From: a virus
DNA length: 64,000 nt
Direction: 5' to 3' (one strand)
IMG/VR virus record: IMGVR_UViG_3300045988_151591
Location: 34,841-98,840 of that record
This document shows positions 17,420-61,331 of the stretch, one piece after another. The notes beneath the pieces were generated by a model. It had not been told where the DNA came from. It saw only the letters and a list, made by a program, of their open reading frames with translations, and did no database searches. Every line of letters begins with the position of its first letter. Position 1 is the first letter of the stretch. The position numbers and the translations under genes are program-made.

Positions 17420-17509
17420 TCATCAATATAAACATATATATATATCATGGCTAAAGATGCGTCTTCGTTTGGGCGTTAATGGACGTTATGATAAATAGTA
17501 GATTTTAAT

Positions 17510-18487
17510 ATGGGCAAAAGCAAAAAGCAACAAGAGGCAAAGCGCATAGATGCCATCTATGCGCAGCCTACCATTTATTACATTAACTTCAAAGATGTAC
17601 CTTTGGAGAAATATACCGAGTCGCTTGACCTACTCTTTCGTGATCCTGACTTTAATGAGTTGATGACGAAACGCAATAACCTCGCGAAGGTGGCAAGTAG
17701 GTTGAAGCAAGGTTCTTCAGAGATTCAAAATTTGGTGAAGCAGATACAGAAGCGCGATTTAGAGCTGGCTTATACGATGTATTCCTCCGTTGTGTTGGCG
17801 AATGTTCGTTCTAACGTTACCTTCGACTTTTTCTCCTTTGGTACTCTACTGAGATATTTTGTAGATTATTCTCAGGATGGTATGCAAGAGAAGGTAGATA
17901 CATTGTCACTCAACCTTGATAAGGTAGCGTTTCTTTCCGACATGCTGGAATGCGTCGTGAAGGATGTCAGGTCGAATATGTATGCAGTCTTCGGCAATAC
18001 TACTGAGTTCCATCAGTTCGACGGTGTTATCAAAATGATACAGCAACTTCGTGGCTTTTATCAGTCTGTTATTGGTAAGGATGACAACACTCCTAAAGCA
18101 CAGCTGTATTTTGAATATTCTGACAGTATCGACGATTACCTCAGCAAACGTTTGACTACCTACAGCAAGAAGCTTCGTAAACTGACACCCATGTTGCCAG
18201 TTTATACTGCAGAGCAGATGGTAGAAGCCATTAACCTGTTTTTTTACAATGAAACCCATTTTGATAAGGAATTTATCAAGCATACGGAAAGTGGAGGAAC
18301 GTATATAGATGCTTTATCGCTCGTCAAAGTTTTATCGCCCAGTCAGACAGAAAGGCTCGACAAGGTGATGAAAGAGGCGGGATGTACTGTCACAGCGGAT
18401 AAAGATCCAGCCAACTATTGCTTTAGAGTAACAGATATTATCCTGTTGTACTACCATAGAAGTAAAGGTAAAAAAGTAAAAAGGTAA
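17510..18487 (+). CDS. hypothetical protein (325 aa)
   Basis: ORF with a Lys-rich C-terminus. Confidence 0.5.
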   Translation: MGKSKKQQEAKRIDAIYAQPTIYYINFKDVPLEKYTESLDLLFRDPDFNELMTKRNNLAKVASRLKQGSSEIQNLVKQIQKRDLELAYTMYSSVVLANVRSNVTFDFFSFGTLLRYFVDYSQDGMQEKVDTLSLNLDKVAFLSDMLECVVKDVRSNMYAVFGNTTEFHQFDGVIKMIQQLRGFYQSVIGKDDNTPKAQLYFEYSDSIDDYLSKRLTTYSKKLRKLTPMLPVYTAEQMVEAINLFFYNETHFDKEFIKHTESGGTYIDALSLVKVLSPSQTERLDKVMKEAGCTVTADKDPANYCFRVTDIILLYYHRSKGKKVKR

Positions 18488-18536
18488 AAAAAGACCCTCT
18501 TGCCAATCTGAATGTAAAAAGTAAACATTTTTTAAG

Positions 18537-19268
18537 ATGCCAAATATCTATCTTCGGCTTCCGTTGAGTCGGTGCCAGTTTATCAGGAATCGAGACCCTA
18601 ACCACGTATTGTCCAAGTGTGATCCTCTGGTCTTTAACAGTTATATGCCGGAGCATTTCATTCTGCGCAATTCACTGACCCCGGCTGTGGCTAATTGTAA
18701 GCAAATCAATATGACTTGTTTTTCGCAACAGCAGTGGCGAAACATGATGCAAGGCAGACATCCTTTAGGTGGAAGTATTGTCATCAAGAGAGATGTTCAC
18801 CAATATCTTTCTTATGGCGAAGTTCAATACTTGAACGGTAAACTTGATTACGCTAAAACCAACAATGAAGATTATCTTTGCATTAAACTTCCGAATGAGG
18901 TGGAGATGGTAGATGTAGTCAAGTCGGTTACTCCTTCCTGGACGATTGATACCCATGGTGTGCGTCGCCTGCTTACATCCATAAACAATGACTTCAAGCG
19001 AAGCATTGTGGAGTGGTCGCTTTCTACTTTCGATTATTGCACGTCAAAAGGCCGTCTGATAGCTCGTTCCAGGGCTGCTGCGCTGGAGCGATACTTAATG
19101 AGATATGGCATAGAACCGACAACCGAAGAAAAGGATAATCTTCGCCGCATCGTCAACCGCTGGTTGAGTACCGAACACGCCAATTATAAGTCGTTTTCGT
19201 GTTTCGATATGCAGTATGGCGACGCAAAAGAAAGCTGTATGCACATTGACGAGATACAATGGCTATAA
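18537..19268 (+). CDS. hypothetical protein (243 aa)
   Basis: ORF preceded by a copy of the GTAAAAAGGTAAAAA element. Confidence 0.45.
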   Translation: MPNIYLRLPLSRCQFIRNRDPNHVLSKCDPLVFNSYMPEHFILRNSLTPAVANCKQINMTCFSQQQWRNMMQGRHPLGGSIVIKRDVHQYLSYGEVQYLNGKLDYAKTNNEDYLCIKLPNEVEMVDVVKSVTPSWTIDTHGVRRLLTSINNDFKRSIVEWSLSTFDYCTSKGRLIARSRAAALERYLMRYGIEPTTEEKDNLRRIVNRWLSTEHANYKSFSCFDMQYGDAKESCMHIDEIQWL

Positions 19269-19340
19269 ATACCGCCTTTAAAAATGTGTTAATAAGAAAA
19301 GTAAAATAAGTTAAAAGTTTAATTATAATATTCGATATAT

Positions 19341-19829
19341 ATGTTTGTACCAGATAATTGTAGGGAGACGTTTCTCGATGGCGTAACCGACGTTTACTTT
19401 CATGATGTGGAACATTCCTCTATCCCTGTTCCGCCATTTGTCGCTCAGATTATGCAGATAAACAACTGCAATTTTTCCGAGCCAGCGCTGCATATCGCCA
19501 TGTCTGAAGGAGAACATACGGTATTGGCAAGCAGCATTACAGCAAAAGAAACTCCATCGCAAGGTGGAAACGGAACTGTTTATACCTTTGAGGTGAGTGT
19601 AAATGTGTTGACTGGTGGTAATCTTGTATGCGAAGCGTCTAAACTAATGAAGGGTAAGGACTATTATATAGTACTTCGTAGGCGAGACGAATCGTTTTGG
19701 CTCTGTTATACGCTTGCTCATACTTTCCGACTTGCCACATCTTCGACTGCTACAAACAGTTCGGAGTCGAGAACCATAACAGCCACTTGTAAAGCAATGT
19801 CCGATTTTATTCCTATTCAGTTGGAATAA
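19341..19829 (+). CDS. hypothetical protein (162 aa)
   Basis: ORF. Confidence 0.4.
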   Translation: MFVPDNCRETFLDGVTDVYFHDVEHSSIPVPPFVAQIMQINNCNFSEPALHIAMSEGEHTVLASSITAKETPSQGGNGTVYTFEVSVNVLTGGNLVCEASKLMKGKDYYIVLRRRDESFWLCYTLAHTFRLATSSTATNSSESRTITATCKAMSDFIPIQLE

Positions 19830-19936
19830 ATTTTATAATATATTCGTTAAATATCAGAAATAGTATTTAGTTGTCAACGTCGTTGTCCGTGAGGATAGCG
19901 GCGTTTTTTTGTCCTTTTTGCCTACCTTCAATCTAT

Positions 19937-19944
19937 TACCTTTG
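19937..19944 (+). promoter_or_regulatory. Bacteroidetes -7 promoter motif TAccTTTG
   Basis: 'tacctttg' ~90 bp upstream of the protease-scaffold gene. Confidence 0.45.
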
Positions 19945-20034
19945 CAAACAGAAACATTTGACATAGTACATTCTTTGGTAAAAAGAATTGTTTACAGGAT
20001 AACATACATTCACAATCTTAATTTTTAAACCCGT

Positions 20035-21723
20035 ATGAAAGGTCTTTTTGAAATTATGACCAACAAGGAGTGGATGATCAACCCCGAGTTCGTACACGGA
20101 ATACGTAAGGCCTTAGAGCAGAACCTGAACACTCATGCTGCTTTCGAGAAGCCTCAGAAGACTTGCGGTTTTGTCACTGCTATAGACGAGAACGGATGCG
20201 TCTACTATCCCGAGGAATATCAGATCTCAGAGGATGGTAATCAGGTGAGAAGTCAGTGGGCTCTCAAAGATGATGATGCACAAAATTTTCCTTTTGTCTC
20301 TGTCCTTACAGTTGATGGTCCTATCACCCGCAATGGCGGCGGTTGCTCGTATGGTTCCGTCGATCATCGTAACATGATGATTAATGCAGCCAATCATCCT
20401 TTGTGTCGTGGTCATATCTTTATTATTGACACACCTGGCGGTACAGCATGGGCTAAGAATGATTATGAACAGGCCATCAATTACGCACGTTCACTTGGCC
20501 AGCCAGTTCTGTGTTTTATCGATGGCGACTGCTATTCTGCCGGTATGTATCTCGCCTCTCTCTGCGATGAGCGATATTACATGCACCCGAAGGACGGTGT
20601 AGGCTGCATCGGTGTGATGGGTGCTTTTTATACTGAGGCCGACGGCAGTACCAACAAGTTCACCAACGAGACTTATCACGAGATTTACGATCCGGAGTCT
20701 TATGACAAGAATCGCGAGTTCCGTGATATTGCCAACGACGGCAATACGAAGAAGTTCGTGGCAGAGTTGGCTGAACTGGGCGTCGAGTTCCGCAGAGATG
20801 TAAAGAAGGCTTGCCCGAAAGCTAAAAAGGAGCATCTCCATGGAAAGATATTCACAGCCGAAGAGGCAAAGGGCATTTTGGTGGATGGTCAATCTACTTT
20901 CCTTGACTGCATCCACCGCTGCTTCGATCTCTACAATGGTACAGCAAATCCTATCGAGAGAGAAATCACCACTGATGACCAAGGTACTGATACCGAAGGC
21001 ACAGAAAAAGAGCCTAAGAACGTCTCTACCCCAGCTACAGTAGCCAGTTCAGCACAAGAGCCAACGACCGCTCCATCTTCAAAAAAGGATAACAACAACA
21101 ATTTTAACCAAACTCATATTGATATGAAAAATTACCCATTGATTAGCGCTGCTTGTGGAATCAAGGAAGGCGAGATTGAAGTCAATGCAGAGGGCGCATT
21201 CATGAATATGCCATTGCTCGACTCTCTCGAAGCCAAGTTTTACACCAACGAGCAGGCTGTGGCCGATGCCAAGCAGAAAGCCACTACAGCAGAGCAAAAA
21301 CTCGCTGACCTTCAGGCTAAGTTTGATGCTCTTCAGGCAGAACACGACGCAGCTAAGACTCGTTCTGATGAAACGGCTGCAACTCTCGCCAAGAAGGACG
21401 AGGAGATAGCTGCCCTTACAACAAAGAAGAATGAGGAGATAGCTACTCTTACAACCGACAAAGCCAAGGTCGAAGAGGAACTGAAAGGCGCAAAGGAATC
21501 GCTCGCTACAGCCGAGCAGACCATTGCCGACAAGGACGCCCAGATAGCCGCCCTTACCGAAGAGGCTGGCAAGGAACCTGCGGCAGGAACTGCACCAGGT
21601 AACAACGGAGAAGGCGCACAGGTAACCGAACCTCATACAGCCTACCCCACTTGGAACCCTTCAGATCCTGTTGGCTCAAAGAAGGCTATCGAGAAGTATA
21701 AACGTGATAATGGTCTTCTCTAA
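20035..21723 (+). CDS. prohead serine protease (S49/ClpP family) fused to a coiled-coil scaffolding domain
   Basis: 'IIDTPGGTAW' and 'CYSAGMYLASLCD' are ClpP/SppA-like motifs. The C-terminal ~200 aa are coiled-coil heptad repeats ('EEIAALTTKKNEEIATLTTDKAKVEEELK'). Confidence 0.75.
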   Translation: MKGLFEIMTNKEWMINPEFVHGIRKALEQNLNTHAAFEKPQKTCGFVTAIDENGCVYYPEEYQISEDGNQVRSQWALKDDDAQNFPFVSVLTVDGPITRNGGGCSYGSVDHRNMMINAANHPLCRGHIFIIDTPGGTAWAKNDYEQAINYARSLGQPVLCFIDGDCYSAGMYLASLCDERYYMHPKDGVGCIGVMGAFYTEADGSTNKFTNETYHEIYDPESYDKNREFRDIANDGNTKKFVAELAELGVEFRRDVKKACPKAKKEHLHGKIFTAEEAKGILVDGQSTFLDCIHRCFDLYNGTANPIEREITTDDQGTDTEGTEKEPKNVSTPATVASSAQEPTTAPSSKKDNNNNFNQTHIDMKNYPLISAACGIKEGEIEVNAEGAFMNMPLLDSLEAKFYTNEQAVADAKQKATTAEQKLADLQAKFDALQAEHDAAKTRSDETAATLAKKDEEIAALTTKKNEEIATLTTDKAKVEEELKGAKESLATAEQTIADKDAQIAALTEEAGKEPAAGTAPGNNGEGAQVTEPHTAYPTWNPSDPVGSKKAIEKYKRDNGLL

Positions 21724-21776
21724 CATCATTTCTATTTTTTCAAACTTTCATTCACATTTTTAAAAAGTAAAGTATT

Positions 21777-23063
21777 ATGAATACACCTAAAAACTTTATT
21801 GGTATTGATGCCCTTCAGCAGGTAGCTAACCAAGTTTTTAAAAGCGTCGTGATGGGACCACAGTATGCAGCTCCTGAAGATATGCAGCGTCTTGGAGTAA
21901 AAGTTATCAGTGGCATCCAGTATCAGCGTACAACTAACATCTTCTTGCGTAAAGGTGGCACCACTCGCCGAAAGGATGTCAATCCTAAGATGAACAGCGA
22001 GGTGGGCTTCCTGAAAGAGCGCGTACTTACTGCCAAGCTCGCTTGGTTCCATGGTTCTGATAATATCGACAGATATTGCGAGACAATCCATGGTACAGAC
22101 GCGCAGGGTGCTTATCCTCTTTCTACTGTTGCTGTAGAGGCCGTAATAAAAACCCATGCTGATGACATCTACAATAACGCCTGGTGGGGTGACATCGACA
22201 ACGATCACGAGGGCGCTACCGAAGAGGAGAAGGCTATGGGCCTGGCTGATGGTTGGATCACCTGCATCAACCATGACATCGAGGACGGCTTGATTAGTGA
22301 GGCTAACCATAACCTCATTCATTGTGAAGCCATCTCAGCTCCTACGTCTTCCACAGATAGTTCTGCTTACAAGAACTTCCGTGATGCTTACATGAAGCTT
22401 GATCCACGTCTTCGTCGTCAGCCGATTTTCGCTTATATGACTACAGAGACCGCTATCAATATCTCTGATGCTTATGCTCTCCAGTCATACGGTACTCACA
22501 AGCTCGACGTAGTAGCAGACGGTAACTACAAGATTCCTGAGTTGCCAAAGGTAACTATCGCTCCTGTAGACGGTATGGGTGAAGGCGACCGCATCATCTT
22601 CTCTGTTGCCAACAACCTCGTGTTCGCTGTTGATTCAGAGGGTAATCAGACTTTCGTCGATGTACGCCTCGGCTCTGACAACGATACACGTGACCTGCAG
22701 TTCCAGTGTCAGAGTATTCAGGGCTACGGTATCGAAAATCCATTCTCATGGGCTTTGGCTGTTACGGATGGTGAGCTGCGCTGCACTGACTTTGTATCTG
22801 GCGACTATACCAACTCTAACCTTGTAGTGACTATCGCAGAAACTGAAGGCAAGGAGATTACCGACGCTTCAGTAACCGTCAACGGTACTAAGTACGACAA
22901 GGCCGTAGAAACCACTCCTAACCAGATCCTGACTCTTGAGGCAAAGGATGGTACAAAGGATAAGTTCTCGCATTGGAGTAATGGTAGCAAGGAGAAGTCC
23001 ATCACTATCACCGCTACTGGTATGAGTATGGGTCTTACTGCCTTCTTCAAGGCAAGTGAGTAA
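21777..23063 (+). CDS. major capsid protein candidate (HK97-like position)
   Basis: 428 aa. Lies immediately after the protease-scaffold gene. A strong terminator follows it. Confidence 0.5.
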   Translation: MNTPKNFIGIDALQQVANQVFKSVVMGPQYAAPEDMQRLGVKVISGIQYQRTTNIFLRKGGTTRRKDVNPKMNSEVGFLKERVLTAKLAWFHGSDNIDRYCETIHGTDAQGAYPLSTVAVEAVIKTHADDIYNNAWWGDIDNDHEGATEEEKAMGLADGWITCINHDIEDGLISEANHNLIHCEAISAPTSSTDSSAYKNFRDAYMKLDPRLRRQPIFAYMTTETAINISDAYALQSYGTHKLDVVADGNYKIPELPKVTIAPVDGMGEGDRIIFSVANNLVFAVDSEGNQTFVDVRLGSDNDTRDLQFQCQSIQGYGIENPFSWALAVTDGELRCTDFVSGDYTNSNLVVTIAETEGKEITDASVTVNGTKYDKAVETTPNQILTLEAKDGTKDKFSHWSNGSKEKSITITATGMSMGLTAFFKASE

Positions 23064-23097
23064 TCATCGGCACGACTGCTCATAATAATAAAATCAC

Positions 23098-23147
23098 GGG
23101 CGGCGGTCGGCTGACCTGACGGAAAATGTCGGTCGTCGCCTTTTTTA
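23098..23147 (+). terminator. intrinsic terminator after capsid gene
   Basis: 13-bp stem 'ggcggcggtcggc...gtcggtcgtcgcc' with G-U wobbles, followed by TTTTTT. Confidence 0.6.
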
Positions 23148-23173
23148 TTAAACCATTAAAACAAGATACAACT

Positions 23174-23740
23174 ATGGCAGAAAAAGCAACATGTCCTGAG
23201 CTCTTGGATGTACTGAACGAAAACGAGTGCTTGGAGAATATCGCAGGTATGGGCAATAATGTGTATATCGGTCTGAAGAGTGATTTGGCTGCGCCACTGA
23301 CTCTCACAGGCAGCACTTATTCTACTCCTACCTTCAAGAGCGGTAAGGGACTTTACAAGGTTGAAGCCAGCGATGACACACAGCAGATCCAGGGTTCTTC
23401 GGCTGGTTACAGAGGTGGCTTCGATCTTACAACTAACTTTGCTCTCGACTCTGTGAGTGAGACAGGCGGCAAGTTGGCCCGCGCTATCAACAACCAGGAT
23501 GTTTTCATCATCGTAACAGGTAAGGGTGGCGACAGAACGCAGATCATGTACGATCCTAACATCAAGGTGAAGTTCGACAATGGCGGCATCAAAACCGACA
23601 CTGGTGCCAAGAGTGGCGACGAGCGTAAAACCACCTTTGAGGCAAAACTGAACGGTGTACTTTATCCTAACCTCTACGTGACCGATCCTGCAACGGAAGG
23701 ATGGGATTCACTCCTTGCTTCCAAGGCAGTGGGGGGATAA
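23174..23740 (+). CDS. virion structural protein candidate (tail-tube or decoration-like)
   Basis: Start chosen at 'MAEKATCPELL', after the terminator. Gly/Thr-rich beta-like sequence. Ends at a G6 tract. Confidence 0.45.
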   Translation: MAEKATCPELLDVLNENECLENIAGMGNNVYIGLKSDLAAPLTLTGSTYSTPTFKSGKGLYKVEASDDTQQIQGSSAGYRGGFDLTTNFALDSVSETGGKLARAINNQDVFIIVTGKGGDRTQIMYDPNIKVKFDNGGIKTDTGAKSGDERKTTFEAKLNGVLYPNLYVTDPATEGWDSLLASKAVGG

Positions 23741-24113
23741 CGGGCGGAACTGATAAGGGCGAGACTGATTCCGCCGACCCAGGAACATCAGCAGCAAAGA
23801 AAGCGGCTGCGAGAGCGACTGCGGCAAGGACGAGCACTGCAAGTGTGAAGCCGACAGACGCAAGTACAACTCCGACAAGCGCCGCCAGTACATTGATTGA
23901 TGATGATTGATCGCTCTAAATTGTAAGGCATAACATTTACGATTTTAAAATTTATACTTTCAAAGACTCGGTATCTTGGCTAATAAGTCTATGATACCGA
24001 GTTTTTTGTTATTATAATATTAGCATTTTTAATGCGAGGTTTCTGTTATCTTTAAATATTTTGTGTAAATTTGCGGCATGAATTTATTATTGGTCTATTA
24101 ACATTTAACTATT

Positions 24114-25022
24114 ATGGAACTTCGTCATTTGCGCTCATTTGTATATGTAGCCGAAACTTTATCGTTCAGTATTGCAGCCACGCGCTGTTGTGTCGCTCAG
24201 TCCGCCATCAGTCAACACATCAAGGCTCTTGAGGATGAACTGAGGTGCAAGTTGCTTATCCGCACCTCGCACAGCATTATGCTCACCGAGAGTGGCGAGG
24301 CGCTTTTGCCTCGCGCCAAGGAGATACTGAAGCAGACGGATGACTGCAAGGAGCAAATCAATGCGCTCAACAACTGCCTTGTGGGCGAGCTGAGGATAGG
24401 TGTAGGCTCTTTTATCGCACCTTACATTCGGATGGCGGCACTTATCTTCATGGAGCGATACCCGAATGTGAGAATCAACGCCGAGTTTGCCAAGGCAGCG
24501 AACTTGAACCACCTGTTGAGAAGCCACTCCATCGACCTCGCCTTCACTCTGAACTCTGCCTACAAGAATGAGGGTATCAAGTCAGAACCCTGTATTCCTT
24601 TCCGTATCTATGCGATGATGCGGGACACCCATCCCCTGGCCCGACTGGAAAAGGTGTCATACGAGGATTTGTTAAGGCACAACGTGATTATGCCCGATGT
24701 AGGCGAAAGGGTGTTCAATACCTTCCAGCAATATCTGAGATATGACTTGATGAAACTGAATGTAAAATGTATTGTGAGCGACCCCAACGAAGACCTTGCC
24801 ATCGTGGAAGAAACCCATTGTGTTACTTTCATGCCTAAACTTTATCTGAAGAGTCACCCCACCCTTACCGTCCGTCCCATCGTGGGGCTTGAGCACGACC
24901 TGATGAGCAATGCCCACTGGATGAAGGACGTGCCGATGAAGCGGTCAGCACAACTTTTTCTCGACATTGTGCGCAACGAAGCCATACCTTATATTAAAAC
25001 TCTTGAGGAAGCCATGCGATAA
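24114..25022 (+). CDS. LysR-family transcriptional regulator
   Basis: N-terminal HTH 'LRHLRSFVYVAETLSFSIAATRCCVAQSAISQHIKALEDELRCKLLIRTS'. The length and C-terminal domain fit the LysR family. Confidence 0.85.
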   Translation: MELRHLRSFVYVAETLSFSIAATRCCVAQSAISQHIKALEDELRCKLLIRTSHSIMLTESGEALLPRAKEILKQTDDCKEQINALNNCLVGELRIGVGSFIAPYIRMAALIFMERYPNVRINAEFAKAANLNHLLRSHSIDLAFTLNSAYKNEGIKSEPCIPFRIYAMMRDTHPLARLEKVSYEDLLRHNVIMPDVGERVFNTFQQYLRYDLMKLNVKCIVSDPNEDLAIVEETHCVTFMPKLYLKSHPTLTVRPIVGLEHDLMSNAHWMKDVPMKRSAQLFLDIVRNEAIPYIKTLEEAMR

Positions 25023-25197
25023 AAAGATATTGTTATTATACCTTTATATATTGTGCCTGTTTATGTTTTCATAAGCATTTCTGTTTCGTGGTTTTCCTGT
25101 AAGAATACTTCATAGACTTCCCTTTTCTTTTTGTCTGTTTCCCTTTACTTTTGCAGATGATTCCGATATTGGAAGAATTTTGTAAATATCAATCATT

Positions 25198-25716
25198 ATG
25201 CAAGTAAAAACTAATGACGGCAACTATGATGTTGCCAGCAAAGGCTTAGGCAACACTGCCCTTGGCCTTGGTATTGCGGGATTGGCTACCAGCCTTTTGG
25301 GCGGTGGCGCTTCGCTGTTGGGCATGACGAGAAACGGCGGTCCGGCTACTGCCAACCCTTCCGACCCCGATGCGCGTTTCGTGACCAAGAGTGAGACCAA
25401 CCTCATTCAGGAGAACTCTACACTCAAGACTGAGCTCGCCATCCAGAAGAGCGAGAACTACACCGACAAGAAGTTGGTAGAGGTAACCCAGTATCTTGAC
25501 ACGAAGTTGCGCCGTGTGGAAGACAAGGTGGATGCCAACAAGGACGCACAGCAGGCGATCAACGCACAGCAGATGGCATACAATGCTGCTGCCAATGCCA
25601 ACATCGACGTGCTGAAGTCGCAGGTGGCATCTCTTGCGAGTGTCACCAAGGTGTTTATCCCTTCCAGCAACGTATGCCAGACCGGCTGCGGTTGTGGTTG
25701 TGGCTGTAACCAGTAA
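25198..25716 (+). CDS. membrane-anchored coiled-coil protein (i-spanin-like) with C-terminal GCGCGCGC tail
   Basis: TM segment 'LGLGIAGLATSLLGGGASLLG'. Long coiled-coil. Ends 'QTGCGCGCGCNQ'. Confidence 0.45.
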   Translation: MQVKTNDGNYDVASKGLGNTALGLGIAGLATSLLGGGASLLGMTRNGGPATANPSDPDARFVTKSETNLIQENSTLKTELAIQKSENYTDKKLVEVTQYLDTKLRRVEDKVDANKDAQQAINAQQMAYNAAANANIDVLKSQVASLASVTKVFIPSSNVCQTGCGCGCGCNQ

Positions 25717-25728
25717 TCGGCGTGAGAT

Positions 25729-26151
25729 ATGGATTACACCAATTCTCAGATTTTGGCGGCGGTCGTGTCCGAGTGGGCACGGCCAGCCATTTCGCAGATT
25801 GCTGCCAGCAACCTGATGCGTCTGCCCATGCTCCAGTCGTTGCAAGCCACCATCGGCAGCATGGGACTGGTGAGCGGCAACTACTCGCTGCAGGCCGACA
25901 TGGAGCCGATGATACAGCCCATCGTGAATGCGCTCGTCACACCGATGCTATGCAAGTACTTCGGCAACATTCCCGACGAGAGCATTCCGCAGATGGCTCA
26001 CGACGTGGTGGACCAGTTGCGCTTCAAGGGGTCGCTCTCTATCCTTGAGGGCATGATCACCTTCGACGAGGATGACCTCGACGAGCTGGCAGACCTTCTG
26101 CAGAAGAACCTACCTGTGGAGTCTTCGACAGGCTATCAGGTAAAACATTAA
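25729..26151 (+). CDS. hypothetical protein (140 aa)
   Basis: ORF. Confidence 0.4.
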   Translation: MDYTNSQILAAVVSEWARPAISQIAASNLMRLPMLQSLQATIGSMGLVSGNYSLQADMEPMIQPIVNALVTPMLCKYFGNIPDESIPQMAHDVVDQLRFKGSLSILEGMITFDEDDLDELADLLQKNLPVESSTGYQVKH

Positions 26152-26207
26152 CGTAAGAAAAAATGCGGCGGCCAAGATGCGTCGCTTTATTAAAAAAGAA
26201 AAAGACT

Positions 26208-26639
26208 ATGAACAAAAGAACCATTCCAGCCGTCATTACGGCTACTCTGGCAGTAGGTGCGACAGCCACTGCCCCTTATTACGATGTGAACATCACGCAG
26301 CAGCTCTGCACACCTGCCTGTGTGGACGAGACACCCGTGTTCGTGCCCCAGTTTTCGGTGAAGAATATTGTCAAGGTAGGCACTTCGCAGTATCTCGTGG
26401 TGATGCACGCCGAGGGTGTCATCAACTACGTGCCCTGCAACTGCGGAACGTGCTGCACCCGCTCCCAGGTGGTGAGCCAGGACTTCACCATTCCCGTGTT
26501 CAGTGCTACAGCCATTGCGTCCGTGTCTGCTTCGGTAGGTGCGATTCAGAACGGCATAGCCCGTGTGGCTTGTTGCAGCTGCAGTAAGACCTTTGTGTGC
26601 GATGCGCCTCTCACCCTCACCATCACAGCGACCGCTTAA
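26208..26639 (+). CDS. secreted Cys-rich protein
   Basis: Start at 'MNKRTIPAVITATLAVGATATAP', a signal-peptide-like segment. Cysteine clusters include CNCGTCC and CCSCS. Confidence 0.4.
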   Translation: MNKRTIPAVITATLAVGATATAPYYDVNITQQLCTPACVDETPVFVPQFSVKNIVKVGTSQYLVVMHAEGVINYVPCNCGTCCTRSQVVSQDFTIPVFSATAIASVSASVGAIQNGIARVACCSCSKTFVCDAPLTLTITATA

Positions 26640-26648
26640 ACTCTGACG

Positions 26649-26978
26649 ATGATGACGGAGTATCTGTTAGTAACCCTCGCAGTCCTGACGGCCGCGACGC
26701 TCATTCAGCATCTGGGATTGGCTGAAGCCGTAGCCCAGGTGTTGAGCAAGGTGGCATCATGCCCTCAGTGCCTTACGTTCTGGAGTGTGCTTGCCGTACT
26801 TGTGTGTATGCGTTGTTCTCCCGTCGGGGCTGCGCTGTTGTCCATTCTTGCAGCTTATTGTTCCAACTGGCTTTTGCTGTTGCTGCTTTTGCTGCAGAGA
26901 TTATTCACAAGACTATACGATTATGAAAGAAAAGAAAGTGAAGGTCAGTCCCGAGGCTCTGACAGAACCATCGAGTGA
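26649..26978 (+). CDS. small membrane protein (holin candidate)
   Basis: 109 aa. 3 hydrophobic helices. Charged C-terminus. Lies upstream of the endolysin. Confidence 0.4.
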   Translation: MMTEYLLVTLAVLTAATLIQHLGLAEAVAQVLSKVASCPQCLTFWSVLAVLVCMRCSPVGAALLSILAAYCSNWLLLLLLLLQRLFTRLYDYERKESEGQSRGSDRTIE

Positions 26979-27133
26979 CGACCTAAGAGAAAATAAGAAA
27001 GAAAGAAAGTTAGAGCAAGTTTCTTTCTTTCTTCCCGATTCGGGACAGGCGACGGCGCTTCCCGTCATTCCACATTTCCGTGGTGCTTGCCCCAATTGTT
27101 AGACCATTAATTCTTAAAAAATAAATAAAAATC

Positions 27134-27628
27134 ATGAAGTACAATCAATTAATCAACCAGGCCCGTGTTGACGGACAGATGACAGACAAAAAACTCAATG
27201 CTGCCTTGGAGCAGTTGTCGTGCGACCTGATGAAGGTGGAGAATGAGAATCCAGAGCTTTACTGGAAGATCATCCGTCACCAGCATGCCGTGCTCTACGA
27301 CCGCCACTACAGCGAGATGTTTGCCCATCATGATGTCGACCGACTTCTCTACAGCAAGTTGGACGATGAGGGTGTGCCTATGGGCAGGGGCGCTCACTGG
27401 ACTAAATCGGAGATTGAGCAAGCCACCAAGGACTTCGACTTCCCAAGCAAGGTGAATTGTTGGGACAAGTATGTAGCCTTCAATGCCATGTATGCTGACC
27501 TCTGCGCCGAGATGAGCGAAGAGGAGATTATCAAAGCCGCATACTTGTTCTACTTCTGTGATGCCGACTGGAAGGACACAGATGTACTCGACTGTACGAA
27601 AGTATGGGAATACATGAGCCATGTTTGA
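27134..27628 (+). CDS. hypothetical protein (164 aa)
   Basis: ORF. Confidence 0.5.
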   Translation: MKYNQLINQARVDGQMTDKKLNAALEQLSCDLMKVENENPELYWKIIRHQHAVLYDRHYSEMFAHHDVDRLLYSKLDDEGVPMGRGAHWTKSEIEQATKDFDFPSKVNCWDKYVAFNAMYADLCAEMSEEEIIKAAYLFYFCDADWKDTDVLDCTKVWEYMSHV

Positions 27629-27894
27629 AAAGTAAAAAGGTAAAAAGAGCCGAATATCATTTTGCTGGCGTCAGCAAAATGGTAGTCTTGCCTTTTCAGG
27701 ATAATATTTCGTTTCAGAAGCCGCTTTGCTCCACGAAGAGTGCAGCATTGCGGCTTCCATTGTTTCCGGCTGCGTCAACCCGGTGCGCAGTCTGTCATAC
27801 AAAGTAGCTGGGATATTTTTGTCCCGCACGACGGATAGCGTTTTCGTATCTTTGCCCTACATTTATTAACAACAGAACAAGAAAACGATAAACT

Positions 27895-28449
27895 ATGGTA
27901 AAGATTGAACCTTTAGCTAAATTCATTCTCTCGTTTGAGGGAGGTTTCGTGAACGACCCGAAAGACCGTGGTGGCGCAACCAACAAGGGCGTGACCATCG
28001 GTACATGGCGGCAGCAGGGGTACGACAAGAACGGCGACGGACGGATAGACGTGCGCGACCTCCGACTTATCTCAGATGCTGACGCTACGGAAATCCTGCG
28101 CCGATGCTATTGGCGCCGATGCCGTGCCGACGAGATCAATGACCAGAGCATCGCCAACCTCCTTGTGGACTGGCTGTGGATCAGCGGTACGCCTGCCGTC
28201 ACCCTCACCCAAGCCATACTGGGTGTGAAAGCCGACGGCATCATGGGAAAGAACACCATGGCCGCCCTAAACCGACAGAACCCCGAAGCTTTCTTCTCGC
28301 GCCTCAAGGCTCGCCGCAAGTTGTACTACGAGCGGTTGGCGAAGAACAAACCGTCACAGAAGCGGTTCCTCGCCGGATGGCTTCGTCGGCTCGACGGCAT
28401 CCGATACGGCTCGCTCGTCGACAACCGGGGGAGAGAAATCACCTGGTAG
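27895..28449 (+). CDS. endolysin: GH108 lysozyme domain plus PG_binding_3-like domain
   Basis: 'FEGGFVNDPKDRGGATNKGVT' is the GH108 EGG..NDP.D.GG.T.G.T signature. 'DGIMGKNTMAALN' is the peptidoglycan-binding motif. Confidence 0.85.
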   Translation: MVKIEPLAKFILSFEGGFVNDPKDRGGATNKGVTIGTWRQQGYDKNGDGRIDVRDLRLISDADATEILRRCYWRRCRADEINDQSIANLLVDWLWISGTPAVTLTQAILGVKADGIMGKNTMAALNRQNPEAFFSRLKARRKLYYERLAKNKPSQKRFLAGWLRRLDGIRYGSLVDNRGREITW

Positions 28450-28469
28450 TTTTGATAACTTTCCCATCC

Positions 28470-28620
28470 ATTTTTGGATTTTTCTGGATAAATCTGGTCC
28501 AGCTTTTGGATTTTTCTGGATTAAAAATAGTCCAATTTTGGCGTTTTTTGGATAAAATCGTACAATTTTAGATTTTTTCTGTACTAAAATCGTCCAATTT
28601 TGGCATTTTTGGGATAAAAA
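28470..28620. repeat. 5x tandem ~30-bp repeat TTTTGGATTTTTCTGGATAAAATCGTCCAA
   Basis: Degenerate direct repeats read between the endolysin gene and 28638. Confidence 0.6.
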
Positions 28621-28637
28621 CTTAGGATTCTATAAAA

Positions 28638-29672
28638 ATGAACAATCCAAAAAAAATAGACTTACATCTTCCCCGACATTGGAATCTCTGCACTACGGAA
28701 CAACTGGAGCTGATAGCCGACGTGATACGCGAGCAGGTGGAGCGGCAGGACAGATACCACCCCTTCGACATGCGCAACGTGAAGGTGGCGATCTTCTTCG
28801 TCCTGTCGGGTTTGGAGATAGTGGCGCTGCCCGACTCTCGCCTCGACATCAGCGAGCAGTATTACCTCTGCCGTATGCAGGACGACGAGGACAACGACAC
28901 CTTTCCGCTGTATCTGTGGCAGATCAACTATTGGCTGACGCCCAAGGCGAAGACCGACGCCCGAAAGTCGGCAGAGTACATCGCTCAGGGAGCAGGCTTG
29001 CTCGACTGGCTTGACAACGAGAACGGTGCCTTTCTCACCCGCTTCCCCTACCCTGTCATCCGGCGACGCCGCGCATGGTGGCGACGCAAGAAGGTGTTCA
29101 GCGGTCCTGCCAACGACCTCGACGGATTTTCGTGGGCGCAGTATCGCTTCGCCTCCGACATGATGCAGACCTACACCCGACTGAGCAACAGCCTCTTGAA
29201 GATGCAGCAGCGCGGCACTTTCACCGACGAGCAGATGCAGCGGCAGATGAAGAACGTGAACGCTGCCCGGACGATGTTTCTCGCCACCATCTTCAACGGC
29301 ACGACCGACTATGTGGACAGCAACACGGGCATGGTGAAACACGACTTCCACTATGAGTTGAACCAGTGGGAGACGAACCAGTCCTATTTCCGCGATTTCC
29401 CCGAAACGGCATGGCAGGTGATACTCTTCTGGTGGACGGGCGTGATGCACACCCTCGCTCATCGTTACCGCCATGTGTTCAAGGTGCAGCCCATCAAGTC
29501 GCAGAAGCCCTCCACGCCCTTGGAGATATACACTGCCACCACCGCCACCATGCAGAAGTATGCCGGTCTGACGGAGGACCAGGTGAACAACCAGAGCTAT
29601 TCCCTCGTGCTGGAGCACCTGGAACGCCTGACGGTGGAGAATGAGGAAATGGAAAAGATAAGGAAAAAGTAA
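28638..29672 (+). CDS. hypothetical protein (344 aa)
   Basis: ORF with Trp/Arg-rich segments. The longer reverse ORF 28662-29765 is judged an antisense shadow. Confidence 0.55.
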   Translation: MNNPKKIDLHLPRHWNLCTTEQLELIADVIREQVERQDRYHPFDMRNVKVAIFFVLSGLEIVALPDSRLDISEQYYLCRMQDDEDNDTFPLYLWQINYWLTPKAKTDARKSAEYIAQGAGLLDWLDNENGAFLTRFPYPVIRRRRAWWRRKKVFSGPANDLDGFSWAQYRFASDMMQTYTRLSNSLLKMQQRGTFTDEQMQRQMKNVNAARTMFLATIFNGTTDYVDSNTGMVKHDFHYELNQWETNQSYFRDFPETAWQVILFWWTGVMHTLAHRYRHVFKVQPIKSQKPSTPLEIYTATTATMQKYAGLTEDQVNNQSYSLVLEHLERLTVENEEMEKIRKK

Positions 29673-29771
29673 GCTTTTAAAGGTAAAAAAGTAAAAAGGT
29701 AAAAAAGTAAAAAGAGCCTTCTTGCTGATTTCTAAGACGAAAAAAGTAATAATCAAACCAAACAAGAGAAT

Positions 29772-30912
29772 ATGAAATACGGACTACCTTACAAAGGAAG
29801 CAAAAACAAGTTGGCAGAGCGCATTGTGCGCCTCCTGCCCAAGCGCACGCACCTCGTAGATTTGTTCTGTGGTGGATGCGCCGTGAGCCATGCTGCCCTG
29901 CTTATGGGCAAGTATGAGCACATACATATCAACGACATCAACTGGATGTGTCCTACGCTATTCATTGATGCCCTTAACGGTAAGTACAATGACGAAAACC
30001 GATGGATTAGCCGTGAAGACTTCTTTCGTCTGAAGGACACTGACCCTTATGTGGCTGTAGTGTGGTCGTTTGGCAACAATCTGCGCGACTATCTTTATTC
30101 TAAAGAGATTGAGCCATTGAAGAAAGCCATACACTATGCCATATTCTTCAGCGACTATTCGCTTGGCAAAGAACTCGGTCACGACCTCTCGTTCATCGAC
30201 CCCATACAAGACCTTCAAAAGCGATACCTTGCCGTGAAGCATTACTTCAATAAGTTGGGTCACTTCCAGCAGCAATCGTTTGAGGGGGGGGCAGAATCAG
30301 CGGATGCAGCAGGAATCCTTCAGTCGCACTACCCGACTTGCCTCAATACAAATGGGGGGGTACTCAGAGGATGCAGTCAGCGGAAGCAAACGAAAGGCTC
30401 AATACATTTCGGAATATCATCCCTTGGAAAGGCTGTCAAATCCAGTCTTTCAAAAAAAAAAAAATACAAGCGACCCAGCGAGCTACAGCACAACGAAGGA
30501 CGAAACATCGTTGCATCGCTTGCAATATCGAGAACGGCAGCACAGTCTGCCCAGATATTCGGGGGGGCAGTTTCTACCTATTACGTCCTCTGTGCTTGAC
30601 TATGAAGAAGTCACGATACCCGAAGACAGCGTGATTTATTGCGACATTCCATACGAGGGTACAGACGGATATTTAGAAAAAGGCAAAGGAGGTTTCGACT
30701 ATGAACGATTCTATCAGTGGTGTGAGCGGCAAACGCAACCCGTATTCATATCCTCTTATCAAATACCCGAAGACCGCTTCGACTGCATAGAAGAGTTTAC
30801 CCATCGTTGCACCTTGGCTCAGAAAGACAACAACCTCGTGACGGAGCGCATCTTCGTTCCCAAGCATCAAGCCGAAAGAGGCAACCGCACCGTGCAGCTC
30901 ACGCTGTTCTGA
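29772..30912 (+). pseudogene. Dam-type N6-adenine methyltransferase, split across two frames by a ~300-bp homopolymer-rich insert
   Basis: N-terminal 'YKGSKNKLAERIVRLLP...LVDLFCGGCAV' is Dam motifs X/I. 'CDIPYEGT' is a DPPY-like motif IV in the 30280-30912 frame. Between them are G8, G8, A13 and G7 tracts, with no stop codons in two frames. Confidence 0.6.
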
Positions 30913-30970
30913 CAAGTATGTCCCACTCAGGAAAAAGCAAAGCAGTAACTTTGCCATAAGCATACGAAGA

Positions 30971-31061
30971 AACAAACGATGCCCATTGTTATATGCAAAC
31001 AATGCCCATTGTTTAACCACAACAATGCCCATTGTTGCATATAAACGATACCCATTGTTTT
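30971..31061. promoter_or_regulatory. array of 4 palindromic sites AACAATG-CC-CATTGTT
   Basis: Read directly at 30971, 30997, 31021 and 31044, upstream of the HU-like gene. The same motif occurs at 6172-6212. Confidence 0.55.
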
Positions 31062-31104
31062 GTTCGGGTAGATGCACAATGTATAATAACTAAATTTTAA
31101 GAAA

Positions 31105-31587
31105 ATGGCATTTTCATTAAAATTGAGCAAGTCGAAAGCCTATAACCCCTCCACCAAGGAGCAGGGCTTTCGCACCACCGTTAAGTCTAACGGCAAAGCA
31201 GACATGGACTCTTTGGTAGCGTCTGCAAGTAAGAACACCACCATGCACAAGGCCGAGCTCCGCATGGCTTTTGAGCTGATGCTTGACGCTATCGCCGAAG
31301 CGCTCACATCGGGAAAGAACGTCGAGCTCAAGGGTATCGGCAACATCGGTTTCTCATGCTCCGGCGCTTGGACCAAGACCGCCGAGGAGCAGACCAAGGT
31401 GGAGCACAAGATCGGTGTAGCCTTCTATCCAAGCAATGAGGTACACGCTGCCGTAGCCACAGCCAAGACATCGTGGACCAAGGATGGCGAGGGCGACGAG
31501 CCTACCACTCCCGGCACAGGCGACTCCGGCACCACGGGTGGCGGCGACCAGAAACCTGGTGGCAACCCTCCCGAGATTGAGTCGTAA
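31105..31587 (+). CDS. HU-like DNA-binding protein (Bacteroidetes HU-HIG type)
   Basis: 'AELRMAFELMLDAIAEALTSGKNVELKGIGNIGFSCSG' is an HU-fold-like segment. Gly/Thr-rich C-terminal tail ending '...GGGDQKPGGNPPEIES'. Confidence 0.5.
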   Translation: MAFSLKLSKSKAYNPSTKEQGFRTTVKSNGKADMDSLVASASKNTTMHKAELRMAFELMLDAIAEALTSGKNVELKGIGNIGFSCSGAWTKTAEEQTKVEHKIGVAFYPSNEVHAAVATAKTSWTKDGEGDEPTTPGTGDSGTTGGGDQKPGGNPPEIES

Positions 31588-31729
31588 AGGCAGCGGGTGT
31601 ATAGCCATTCCAGTTCTTTCCAATTTTGCAAGATTTGGAAAGAACTGGAATACCTACAGACACTCTATAGACAATGTACGATTGTCATATATAAGGATTT
31701 TAATGAATCAATATAAACAAAAAACAATT

Positions 31730-32548
31730 ATGAGAAAATTATTTTCAATTCTTTTTGCGCTTATCGCAGTAGTGATGTTATCCTCGTGCTGTTTTGTGTC
31801 GCCCGATGCCGACGAGGAAACCGTGTTGGTAAAGAAACCATGGTTCTTCGGACACGGAGGTGTTGACAACGACCCAGTTCAGAGTGGTCTGACATGGTGT
31901 GCCCTGAGTACTCATTCTGAAACATTCAAGATTGTGCCTGTACGCCACGAGGTAGTTCTTGACGACATCTTCTCCGACGATAACACGCCGCTCGACTTCC
32001 ATTCTGTCATAGTCACGCAGGTGGAGCAAGGCAAGTCGCCCATACTGTTGCAGAACTATGGACGCGACTGGTTTGATACCAACCTATACAACTACTTCTG
32101 CAATCTTATCAGAGACCATATCTCGCAGTACAGTCCGTTCGATTTGATGTCCAACCGACAGGTATTGAGCACCATCGACAAGAAGATTCTGAAGCAGATG
32201 CAGGATTACGTGGCTGCCCTCTCCAAGCACAAGCCGATGCCCGTCATCATCAAGGACGTTATCATCGGTAAGGCAACCCCAAACAAGGAACAGCTTGCCG
32301 AAATGAACCGCACGGCAAAGATGGTACAGGCCAAGCAGACACAGGAGCGTGAATATGAGGTTCAGGTGGCTCGCGAGAAGGCTGAACGCCAAAAGGCTGT
32401 GGCAGACAAGGCGTATATGAACGAGATGAATCTTAACCCGCAGCAGTTTATTCAACTTAAATGGGTGGAGACCGTGGCTCTGAAGCAGGGCGCAAACATC
32501 GACGTGCTCGTTGGTCCGGCAGAGCACATGTGGAATATCAAACGATAA
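31730..32548 (+). CDS. SPFH/band-7-like lipoprotein
   Basis: Lipoprotein signal 'MRKLFSILFALIAVVMLSSC'. C-terminal 'VIIKDVIIGKATPNKEQLAEMNRTAKMVQAKQTQEREYEVQVAREKAERQKA' resembles HflK/C-stomatin. Confidence 0.55.
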   Translation: MRKLFSILFALIAVVMLSSCCFVSPDADEETVLVKKPWFFGHGGVDNDPVQSGLTWCALSTHSETFKIVPVRHEVVLDDIFSDDNTPLDFHSVIVTQVEQGKSPILLQNYGRDWFDTNLYNYFCNLIRDHISQYSPFDLMSNRQVLSTIDKKILKQMQDYVAALSKHKPMPVIIKDVIIGKATPNKEQLAEMNRTAKMVQAKQTQEREYEVQVAREKAERQKAVADKAYMNEMNLNPQQFIQLKWVETVALKQGANIDVLVGPAEHMWNIKR

Positions 32549-32907
32549 TGTGCGACTACGATATGTAGGCGGACGCAACACGACACCCCGACAACAACAT
32601 AATATAGGCCATAATGCAAAAACGTGAAACATATTGTTAGATTAACTGCGGCTCGCACGGCTTCATTCCCGAAGACTACCAACACTCTCGAACTTTCCAA
32701 TTCTATGAAGTGGACGGGAAAGGGAAGGGAGAACCGACGGGACCGCAGTTTTTTCGCTCAGACGCGGTGCGCCGAATGAGGCAACCGCACCGTGCAGCTC
32801 TCGCAGTTCTGACTCATGTCCGTACCACTAAGACAATTCTTAGTACATTTGTAGTCGAAAAAAGCAACAACAACATACATCAACCCCTAAAAACAGGATA
32901 ACAGAAT

Positions 32908-40535: not shown

Positions 40536-41750
40536 ATGGATAGAAAAATATTAATCACAGGCACAGGTATCGTTTCCAGTCTTGGCAACGATACCTTTTC
40601 CGTCGCACAGAAGTTGGCAAATGGAGAGTGCGGTCTGCACCACGATCCCGCACGCAGCGAGAAAGGCTATCAGTCCGACCTGTGCGGAAAGATAAAGGAC
40701 CCGAACCCTTGGAAGTTATCTGAACTCACAAGGGCTCAACGGCAATGTTTTTCCGAACCGACCCTATATTCCTTATCTGCCGTCAATGAGGCTCTGATGG
40801 AAGCCAATATTCTTCCCGAGTTCTTGCAGTCTCACAATGTGTCTGTCATCGTCAGCAATGACTCTACGGCAGGAGAAAGCTATCAGGCAATGACCACTGC
40901 CATTACACAGCGCGACACCCGACGTTTAGGGGCGGCTGCAGTGTTTCGCACACTCAATTCCACCGTCAGCATGAACCTCGCCTCTATCTACGGACTGAAA
41001 GGACTTTCGCTTACCGTCAGCGGGGCTTGTGCCGGAGGAGGTCATGCCATTACTCTCGCCAAGATGCTTCTTGATACGCGCCAAACCGAAATGGTGATTG
41101 TCGTTGGCGCACAGGAGACTGGTCCCTTCTCCATGCTGTCGTTTGATGCCATGGGCGTATTCTCGCCAGACAAGGTGCAGCCTTTCGGCAAAGGCCGCAA
41201 TGGTCTGGCTCCTTCGGGTGGTGCTGCCTGTGTCATTCTTGAGCCTTCCGACAGCTTGCGTTTTGAGGATTATGAAGTCTCGCCCGTGGCAGAACTTTCC
41301 GGCTGCGGCTTCTCCACCAACGGCACCAACATCTGTACCCCGGATGCTTATCAGGAAGAAGTGGCAATGATTAAGGCCATAGAATCGGCAGGACTCGATG
41401 CAGGAATGATAGATGTACTCCTTGCCCATGCCACAGGTACAGAGCTGGGCGATGCTGCAGAGGCAGAAGCCATCGGAAAGGTATTCCCCGAGAGCCCTTA
41501 TATCGTAGCCACCAAGGGCATGACGGGGCACGAGTGCTGGATGGCTGGTGTATCGCAGGCCGTTCAAGCATCCATGATGCTCAACACAGACACTGTCTTC
41601 GGTGCGGCTACCACAGCCGAGAATGCTTTTCCCAAACTCAATCTCGTCATGCAGTCACGCGAGTACTCAGCACACCATATCCTCTGCAATGCCTTTGGCT
41701 TCGGAGGCACCAACTCATCATTCATCATCTCTAAATATCAACCATCATGA
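40536..41750 (+). CDS. beta-ketoacyl-ACP synthase (FabF/FabB-like KS)
   Basis: 'ITGTGIVSSLGN' N-terminus. Active-site Cys in 'TVSGACAGGGHAITLA'. His motifs 'LAHATGTELGD' and 'TKGMTGHECWMAG'. C-terminal 'NAFGFGGTNSSFII'. Confidence 0.9.
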   Translation: MDRKILITGTGIVSSLGNDTFSVAQKLANGECGLHHDPARSEKGYQSDLCGKIKDPNPWKLSELTRAQRQCFSEPTLYSLSAVNEALMEANILPEFLQSHNVSVIVSNDSTAGESYQAMTTAITQRDTRRLGAAAVFRTLNSTVSMNLASIYGLKGLSLTVSGACAGGGHAITLAKMLLDTRQTEMVIVVGAQETGPFSMLSFDAMGVFSPDKVQPFGKGRNGLAPSGGAACVILEPSDSLRFEDYEVSPVAELSGCGFSTNGTNICTPDAYQEEVAMIKAIESAGLDAGMIDVLLAHATGTELGDAAEAEAIGKVFPESPYIVATKGMTGHECWMAGVSQAVQASMMLNTDTVFGAATTAENAFPKLNLVMQSREYSAHHILCNAFGFGGTNSSFIISKYQPS

Positions 41751-41995
41751 ACAAAGAAGATATACGTCAGCGGGTGTTCAATATCGTTGAAGGCCTGCGC
41801 ACACCTTGGGCATCGACAGCAGAAGTGACCGACAGCGCTAACCTGCGTGATGATCTTGCTCTTGAGTCTATTGACTTTCTCGACCTCGTTCTTCAGACCG
41901 AAACCATGTTCCATATCAAGATTTCGCCAGAAGAGGCAAAAGACTTACAGCTTGTGTCTGATGTGACAGCTATCGTAGAGAAGAAAATGTCTTAG
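41747..41995 (+). CDS. acyl carrier protein
   Basis: 82 aa. 'DDLALESIDFLDLVLQTETMF' matches the ACP DLGxDSLDxVELVMxxEE helix-II motif, with a conserved Ser. The ATG overlaps the KS stop codon. Confidence 0.8.
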   Translation: MNKEDIRQRVFNIVEGLRTPWASTAEVTDSANLRDDLALESIDFLDLVLQTETMFHIKISPEEAKDLQLVSDVTAIVEKKMS

Positions 41996-49353: not shown

Positions 49354-49359
49354 ACGAAT

Positions 49360-61254: not shown

Positions 61255-61331
61255 TTTTAAAGGTAAAAAAGTAAAAAGGTAAAAAGAGCCTTCTTGCTGA
61301 TTTCAAAACAAAAAGTAAAAAACGAAAGATT

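Follow-up and report, generated by a model that had tools for sequence, protein, structure and literature searches.

Enterobacterial REP and BIME sequences are short, lineage-specific, high-copy intergenic mosaics that often lie past stop codons or inside operons, and their palindromic forms can terminate transcription or stabilise mRNA; their few modules alternate in orientation. The REP unit itself is an imperfect palindrome mobilised by a RAYT transposase. Cluster K mycobacteriophages carry SAS/ESAS, a 13-bp motif located 3-8 bp from the start codon and overlapping the ribosome-binding site. Phage Mu has four late promoters that depend on an activator, the C protein. In Bacteroidota, promoters of the primary sigma factor combine a -33 TTTG with a -7 TAnnTTTG box, and Shine-Dalgarno-independent initiation favours unstructured, A-rich leaders. 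The PeSLs of T4-like phages, each made of an early promoter and a terminator stem-loop, are short conserved cassettes that recur many times between the genes of a phage genome, flank variable genes, and allow modules to be exchanged by homologous recombination between otherwise unrelated sequences (PMC2839356, PMC4122927). The element described here is closest in its working to the enterobacterial BIMEs and also resembles the PeSLs of T4-like phages; it lacks the defining features of both.

The DNA analysed, hereafter the window, is a 64,000-nucleotide stretch of IMG/VR record IMGVR_UViG_3300045988_151591 (positions 34,841 to 98,840 of that record). It is phage DNA, with genes for a tape-measure protein, a head protease, a GH108 endolysin, a tail fibre, ThyX, a guanylate kinase, two DNA methyltransferases, a primase-like protein, and an HTH regulator. 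When 15 kb of the window were compared by megablast with cultured phage genomes, no match was returned, and tblastn with the head protease retrieved only distant Flavobacterium and Cellulophaga phage relatives at ~25-30% identity, with no close cultured relative. ARAGORN detected no tRNAs in the window, and neither the window nor eight host loci gave an Rfam match at the gathering threshold. Start regions in the window are A-rich, G-poor, and without a Shine-Dalgarno sequence, A accounting for 50-65% at positions -15 to -12 and for 69% at -3.

Four copies of the element lie in the window at 18461, 27629, 29679, and 61259, all on the + strand and at the positions that the earlier note had given; their spacing to the start codons at 18537, 29772, and 61332 is likewise in agreement with it (Table 1). 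The motif described there does recur four times, and its unit was revised on closer reading to (RGTAAAAA)n with n = 2-4, followed by GAGCC and then by TTCTTGC. The arrays hold 3-4 units at 18460-18492, 2 at 27629-27646, 4 at 29682-29713, and 3 at 61262-61285. GAGCC follows the array in copies 2-4 and GACCC in copy 1; TTCTTGC or CTCTTGC comes next in three copies, and a hairpin takes its place in the copy at 27629. The stop codon of the preceding + strand gene lies at, adjoining, or (copy 1) inside each of the four copies. The window contains three hairpin-less copies and one copy made of array plus hairpin. A search of the window for GTAAAAAGGTAAAAA with up to two mismatches gave nine matches against 0.17 expected, a number reached in 0/100 shuffles. 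Using a profile of 101 copies from other phages, nhmmer recovered 61256-61302 (E 5.6e-15), 29682-29730 (E 7.4e-15), 18464-18504 (E 2.8e-5), and 27624-27651 (E 4.6e-5), and no further significant site in the window.

Table 1. Parts of the four copies of the element in the window
Feature	Position	Strand	Details
Copy 1, array	18460..18492	+	AAGTAAAG GTAAAAAA GTAAAAAG GTAAAAAAA; holds TAA stop (18485-18487) of ORF 17510-18487
Copy 1, variant core GACCCTCTTGCC	18493..18504	+	Partial unit GTAAAAAGTAAAC at 18514-18526; ATG 18537
Copy 2, two-unit array and GAGCC	27629..27651	+	One base past TGA (27626-27628) of ORF 27134-27628; without TTCTTGC core
Copy 2, imperfect 25-nt inverted repeat (AAAAGAGCC...GCCTTTT)	27643..27696	+	Encloses perfect hairpin 27658-27681
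Copy 3, TTTTAAAG lead-in and four-unit array	29675..29713	+	3 nt past TAA (29670-29672) of ORF 28638-29672
Copy 3, canonical core GAGCCTTCTTGC	29714..29725	+	Partial unit AAAAAAGTAATAA at 29740-29752; Dam methyltransferase ATG 29772
Copy 4, TTTTAAAG lead-in and three-unit array	61255..61285	+	1 nt past TAA (61252-61254) of HTH gene 61030-61254
Copy 4, canonical core GAGCCTTCTTGC	61286..61297	+	Partial unit AAAAAGTAAAAAA at 61310-61322; ATG 61332

The copy at 27629 carries a perfect 10-bp hairpin, CATTTTGCTG/CAGCAAAATG, at 27658-27681, as had been noted before. Its array and GAGCC are genuine members of the motif; the TCTTGC past the hairpin is coincidental, as TCTTTCC stands there in a relative with 97% identity (L104). 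A different relative carries the full GAGCCTTCTTGCTGATTTC plus ~50 nt that are missing from the window. An origin of the hairpin at 27658 by insertion into a GAGCC/TCTTGC core was considered and dropped on comparison with relatives. The stem comprises 13 bp and the region folds at -25.9 kcal/mol (z -2.8), the only U-tract being CUUUUC, 10 nt later. This copy is the terminator-like, array-plus-hairpin form of the family and may be a terminator. A perfect -7 box of the host type, TATCTTTG, belongs to the endolysin gene itself and lies at 27847-27854, 40 nt ahead of the ATG. Two stop codons are immediately followed by members of a second family of small hairpins, AATATCATTTT(G/C)C..., at 27653-27684 and 50998-51029; the pair shows a compensatory G:C to C:G difference in the stem, and both hairpins are probably terminators.

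Several repeats and genes of other kinds were seen in the window. Three tandem small paralogous ORFs at 59490-60362 (89, 89, and 71 aa) each stand behind the same 43-nt leader (AAAYYCTATATTATAGRCC...), and a near-identical 31-nt leader (AAATAACAACAAAAATACAAAGATTATGAAA) at 55588-55618 and 57013-57043 precedes the different genes 55613 and 57038. Further intergenic tandem repeats, at 52725-52767, 6087-6168, and 28472-28627, comprise an 11-nt unit, TCGTAGTACTT, in four copies, a 22-nt unit in three, and, upstream of gene 28638, a unit of roughly 31-62 nt in three. Between the genes for the Dam methyltransferase and an SPFH/Band-7 protein (30952-31060), a 16-nt palindrome, AACAATGCCCATTGTT, recurs four to five times with a spacing of 23 nt, with one further pair 25 kb away at 6173-6212, and has an iteron- or operator-like look. 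About 330 nt at 53900-54230 are G+C-rich, without a convincing ORF or an Rfam match, and belong to an intergenic region of 1 kb; a canonical promoter (54297-54328) follows downstream of them. A beta-ketoacyl synthase with both Pfam domains (40536-41995), followed by an overlapping 82-aa ORF that is possibly an acyl carrier protein, sits amid phage structural-type genes and is an unusual auxiliary gene for a phage.

Comparison with other genomes revealed that the repeat extends beyond phages. The exact 20-mer GTAAAAAGGTAAAAAGAGCC was present in 110 IMG/VR stretches (>70 viral contigs) and in 99 GTDB genome stretches, the latter nearly all from Segatella (Prevotella) copri or Prevotella sp., whose chromosomes each hold many sites; the complete HDD04 chromosome (3.86 Mb) has seven scattered ones. 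Neighbours of the host sites are housekeeping genes: the repeat lies between trpD and trpC, between uvrA and rlmH, and downstream of manA, nlpE, a PTS EIIC gene, and a SusC-like gene. The host infected by the phage of the window is therefore S. copri or a close relative. The description of the element as phage-specific thus fails for the array and GAGCC, which occur at many S. copri housekeeping loci, and survives for the TTCTTGC core, which is strongly enriched in phages.

The module common to these sites is a tandem RGTAAAAA array ending in GAGCC, usually with a TTTAAAG lead-in. The host and the large phages have it in the form (GGTAAAAA)n-GAGCC-hairpin-(TTTTTACC)n, which resembles a bidirectional terminator and in the host is often located between convergent genes; the fold of array, hairpin, and inverted array reaches -34 to -35 kcal/mol (z -6 to -8). 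A second attached module in the host and large phages (H2) is a conserved hairpin, CCAGCGAT..ATCGCTGG. Host arrays also end right at ATGs, for example that of trpC. Leaving out the sites that had retrieved the loci, array density was ~1 per 60 kb in host DNA versus ~1 per 6 kb in phage DNA. MITEs are marked by terminal inverted repeats and a target-site duplication; in this family the palindromic host forms have inverted arrays at both ends, whereas the window copies have a single array. Full-text literature searches with motif strings and for S. copri repeats, REPs, and MITEs found no description of the family, and PMC7283042 mentions MITEs in generic terms only.

In S. copri, the module GAGCCTTAACCCCTTTGCGCCCCCGTTCCCAGCGATTCCATCGCTGG (L184 2203-2312, L111 800-871, L120 2750-2914) is itself a conserved interspersed repeat; it lies between housekeeping genes, including inside the trp operon, as well as in large Segatella phages, and it matched no Rfam family. 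Contigs of Lachnospiraceae/Clostridia MAGs bearing the S. copri repeat (L124, L135, L146, L163, L168, L170, L195, L202, L208) are likely mis-binned Segatella, since at least L146 and L124 share S. copri flanks (the end of a manA-type gene).

Like REP/BIME sequences, the family is high-copy, intergenic, and dispersed on the host chromosome, as the 99 GTDB stretches and seven HDD04 sites illustrate, and it is a mosaic of array, inverted array, hairpins, H2, and TTCTTGC core in both orientations. It has no sequence similarity to them, however, being built on an 8-bp A-tract array where REP is a 35-nt imperfect palindrome; the three main window copies have no palindrome, and phage genomes carry the family at ~10 times the density of the host, REPs being essentially confined to chromosomes. 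That the four copies are members of a lineage-specific modular intergenic repeat family of S. copri and its phages is well supported.

Among arrays retrieved with one and the same query, the TTCTTGC core followed the array in 155/379 cases in phage loci versus 4/185 in host loci. The core rate was 2.7 per 10 kb in phage contigs of up to 40 kb versus 0.26-0.31 per 10 kb in larger ones. The core-rich contigs are Mu-like, ~30 kb in size, and encode a Mu-type portal, Mu F, a Mu G-like protein, and transposase; the larger phage contigs, to whose lineage the window belongs, have host-like hairpin modules instead. Only tail-fibre-type genes (46711-49905, 92-95% amino-acid identity) are common to the window and the Mu-like group, with no regulator among them, and therefore no common phage factor is evident. 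The family consensus is TTTAAAG(GTAAAAAR)3-4GAGCCTTCTTGCT, and its information content drops beyond +18. Searched alone, the core (GAGCCTTCTTGCTKWT) gave in viral contigs mostly chance matches in the coding sequence of unrelated viruses, and 72/81 occurrences in a scan of new loci had no array; as array-less matches are due to chance, the core is meaningful only beside an array.

The Mu-like contig 102459 (31.6 kb) was mapped as an assembly of three contiguous loci. All of its cores (8/8) are sense-oriented, lie within runs of co-directional genes headed by canonical promoters, and stand ahead of the genes for the transposase, the major head protein, tail completion, and the tail fibres. Judged from gene function and from the analogy with Mu, the transposase would be early and the head and tail genes late. 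The element, although abundant in Mu-like phages, differs from the Mu late promoters in occurring far more than four times, in not being confined to late genes, and in being found in non-Mu phages also. At the ends of the Mu-like contigs, no transposase-site resemblance of an array-like kind was seen. A Mu-like Segatella phage (L003 2448-4874, IMG/VR contig 128214) encodes a Mu F-like head protein with an apparent intein/Hint insertion.

The element lies just upstream of genes in the sense orientation, as the earlier note had it. Non-redundant arrays behind a sense ORF with 70 codons or more numbered 136, and in 118 of them (87%) the stop codon of that ORF lay inside the TTTAAAG lead-in or the array. 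An ORF started within 120 nt past the core in 81 of 98 non-redundant cores, at a distance of 11-87 nt with a mode of 32-36, and merely 11-17 nt separated core and ATG in five non-redundant cases. Core-less arrays end 1-17 nt before the ATG in phages and directly before it in the host, so near that they must lie in the mRNA leader. One relative (L096) has a canonical promoter, TTTG-N19-TAATATTG, then the element, and then the ATG of the head protease/scaffold gene; in the same leader of L100 the promoter and a short array are kept and the core unit is missing. Seven non-redundant variant-core copies are directly followed by a terminator-like palindrome and no ORF, and one conserved copy lies antisense within the 3' end of a gene; given the missing ORF and the antisense placement, these copies cannot serve a downstream start. 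Apparent divergent or convergent junctions were mostly co-directional on inspection. The TTTAAAG lead-in was also considered as a -1 frameshift site and dropped for its register: its internal TAA serves as the stop codon, which puts the heptamer out of the X XXY YYZ frame. With SAS/ESAS the element shares its nature as a conserved short sense repeat just upstream of many starts, proposed to act on translation and not on transcription; unlike SAS/ESAS, its conserved part ends 11-87 nt from the ATG, its array is variable, and it is shared with the host.

As with PeSLs, the element bounds swapped genes or moves together with them. A relative (L036) is 98% identical to the window up to 29672 and then continues without the element and with a different methyltransferase, another (L109) keeps the element at 61259 and has another gene downstream, diverging at 61350, and in a third (L009) the whole 29679-32900 block is absent. 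In contrast to PeSLs, the three main window copies have neither canonical promoter nor stem-loop, and the family is common to host and phages, whereas PeSLs are not on the host chromosome. Unit number varies among near-identical genomes, in which the whole unit may also be tandemly duplicated. Homology breakpoints after which similarity does not resume were found at 52% of array junctions versus 35% of array-less ones (odds ratio 2.0), a statistic drawn from redundant loci centred on arrays and from crude ORF calls. The 29679-32900 block is a 3.2-kb accessory cassette starting with the studied element and comprising the Dam methyltransferase, the palindrome cluster, and the SPFH gene; inside it is a 43-nt direct repeat (30871-30913 and 32771-32813, 93% identical).

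Taken as a whole, we read the element as a BIME/PeSL-like modular repeat that serves as an intercistronic cassette and recombination linker, a reading whose functional steps we infer and to which we give an even chance. The hairpin-less form would be transcribed within polycistronic mRNA and make up nearly the whole spacer between two co-directional genes. It would end the upstream reading frame with stops in all three frames, which follow from three units as TAA recurs every 8 nt, and would place an unstructured A-rich stretch before the next start codon as a leader for Shine-Dalgarno-independent initiation. Its near-identity across unrelated genomes could provide a short homology patch for the duplication, gain, or swap of gene cassettes, and the array-plus-hairpin copy at 27629 may be the terminator, or an RNA-end element, of the preceding gene 27134-27628. 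Folded as RNA, the hairpin-less window copies (18461, 29679, 61259) scored z +0.2 to +0.6 against shuffles and had no significant structure, and mutual information between array and core gave no complementary covariation. With folding at shuffle level and no covariation, the hairpin-less copies are not terminators or structured RNAs. Several points tell against the intercistronic cassette: the usual core-to-ATG distance would fit a promoter as well; the copies that run into a palindrome or lie antisense cannot serve a downstream start; the highly conserved, contiguous 12-mer core has no role assigned in it; if host ribosomes were the sole reader, the near-absence of the core from the host (4/185) is unexplained; and the arrays have G or GG every 8 nt, compared with the G-depleted ordinary leaders here.

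Could the conserved part instead be a promoter? TTCTTGC would then be a non-canonical -7-like element and the A-tract array an UP-like or activator-binding region, read by host RNA polymerase with the help of a phage activator or an alternative sigma, transcription starting ~5-10 nt downstream. The ~45 nt are indeed highly conserved, in sense, and upstream of genes, the core is enriched in phages, and its usual distance of 32-36 nt to the ATG also suits a promoter with a 25-30-nt leader. In addition, the canonical promoter at 54297-54328 has an array-like GGTAAAAGGTAGAAAAA in its spacer, and a two-unit array, as read from the sequence, yields a TTTA-N21-CCTTCTTG geometry. Canonical TTTG-N17-23-TAnnTTTG promoters, however, number six in the window against 1.5 expected and none is at the elements, which bears out the observation that these do not fit the host promoter (TTTG-N19-21-TAnnTTTG). 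Like Bacteroidota promoters, the element lies upstream of genes and its core ends in TTGC, in the manner of the local TAnnTTTGC boxes, but it has neither the TA nor the -33 box. Specifically, the core reads CCTTCTTG (or CATTCTTG, GCTTATTG), with only the final TTG(C) in common, and upstream of it stands the GTAAAAA array, the sole TTT(A) being that of the lead-in. Because the distance of the lead-in shifts by 8 nt per unit (n = 2-6), there is no fixed -33 geometry. A sigma-70-type consensus scan of 17000-31000, for TTGACA-like and TATAAT-like hexamers separated by 16-18 nt, returned 28 sites, none at 18461, 27629, or 29679 on the + strand. The suggestion of a middle/late promoter is disfavoured, as in contig 102459 the element precedes the early-type transposase and the late-type head and tail-fibre genes alike and is intra-operonic, showing neither the single gene class nor the operon-head position of a temporal-class promoter, and as in L096 a single intergenic region holds the canonical promoter and, downstream of it, the element. 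The core is dispensable in L100, and the five distances of 11-17 nt to the ATG weigh against a promoter, as do the occurrence in two unrelated phage groups without a shared regulator in the sequence compared and the lack of an RNA polymerase or sigma domain, such as a T7/N4/crAss-type phage promoter would call for, in ~50 window proteins and the large ORFs of related loci, a set in which genomes are incompletely sampled and many proteins belong to no family. Being essentially absent from the host (4/185 arrays), the core is not a host regulon signal. Sigma-54 (-24 GG/-12 GC) and rrn/lambda boxA were dropped after a by-eye consensus check. On balance a promoter peculiar to the phage of the window is unlikely, and transcribed spacer cassettes are the likelier reading of the copies.

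About equally likely as the promoter, and so also improbable on its own, is a selfish or neutral repeat with no cis-regulatory role, which would spread by slipped-strand mispairing and homologous recombination between arrays, be exchanged within the phage pool and between phage and host, and survive only where harmless (intergenic, sense). This would agree with the varying unit number and whole-unit duplications among near-identical genomes, the confinement to one host lineage and its phages, the ~10 times denser arrays in phages than in the host, the enrichment of mosaic breakpoints at array junctions, and the copies without a downstream gene or antisense in a gene end. It is opposed by the strong conservation of the 12-nt core across unrelated genomes and by near-uniform orientation and exact placement (stop inside, ATG within ~35 nt), since a neutral element would scatter more; transposase association and target-site duplication were not seen, there being no empty/filled site pair from which to read a duplication. 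The strict 8-bp periodicity, the conserved G positions, and the presence in both host and phage DNA would also suit phased binding sites for a DNA-binding protein, nucleoid-associated or of another kind, which might influence supercoiling, replication, or packaging, much as gyrase and IHF act at E. coli BIMEs. We consider this quite improbable: no binding protein was identified, 8-bp phasing does not produce planar A-tract bending, and the strand bias relative to transcription and the stop/start coupling point to an RNA-level or gene-expression context. Least probable, to the point of being hardly credible, is that the hairpin-less form is a weak intrinsic terminator or attenuator in which the core GCCUUCUUGCU is an imperfect inverted copy of the array unit. 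The two do agree at 8/11 positions with all differences being transitions, UUUU often follows, the copy 4 fold pairs AGUAA.AAGGU with GCCUU.CUUGCU, and TTGCTTTTAAAG lies past the core in many relatives. Yet the folding energy is at shuffle level, covariation is absent, the window copies are followed by GATTTC and not by a U-run, and in L096 the element lies between the canonical promoter and the gene, where a terminator would be harmful.

For the intercistronic repeat family, a further, tentative proposal is that this undescribed family and its TTCTTGC module constitute a portable signal, either an enhancer of Shine-Dalgarno-less translation or intercistronic expression or a promoter for redirected host polymerase, which moves with cassettes and drives mosaicism. 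If true, a portable, phage-restricted expression signal would travel with gene cassettes among the phages of one host. S. copri is a major human gut bacterium that is difficult to handle genetically, and little is known of its expression signals and its phages. For annotation the case is a caution: conservation of a motif ahead of phage genes does not by itself make it a phage promoter. The repeat common to host and phages is a sequence-only marker for assigning uncultured phages to S. copri, and the family may account in part for the fragmented assemblies and the mosaicism of S. copri and phage genomes. Its compact, portable intergenic cassettes are candidate expression parts for Prevotella/Segatella genetics.
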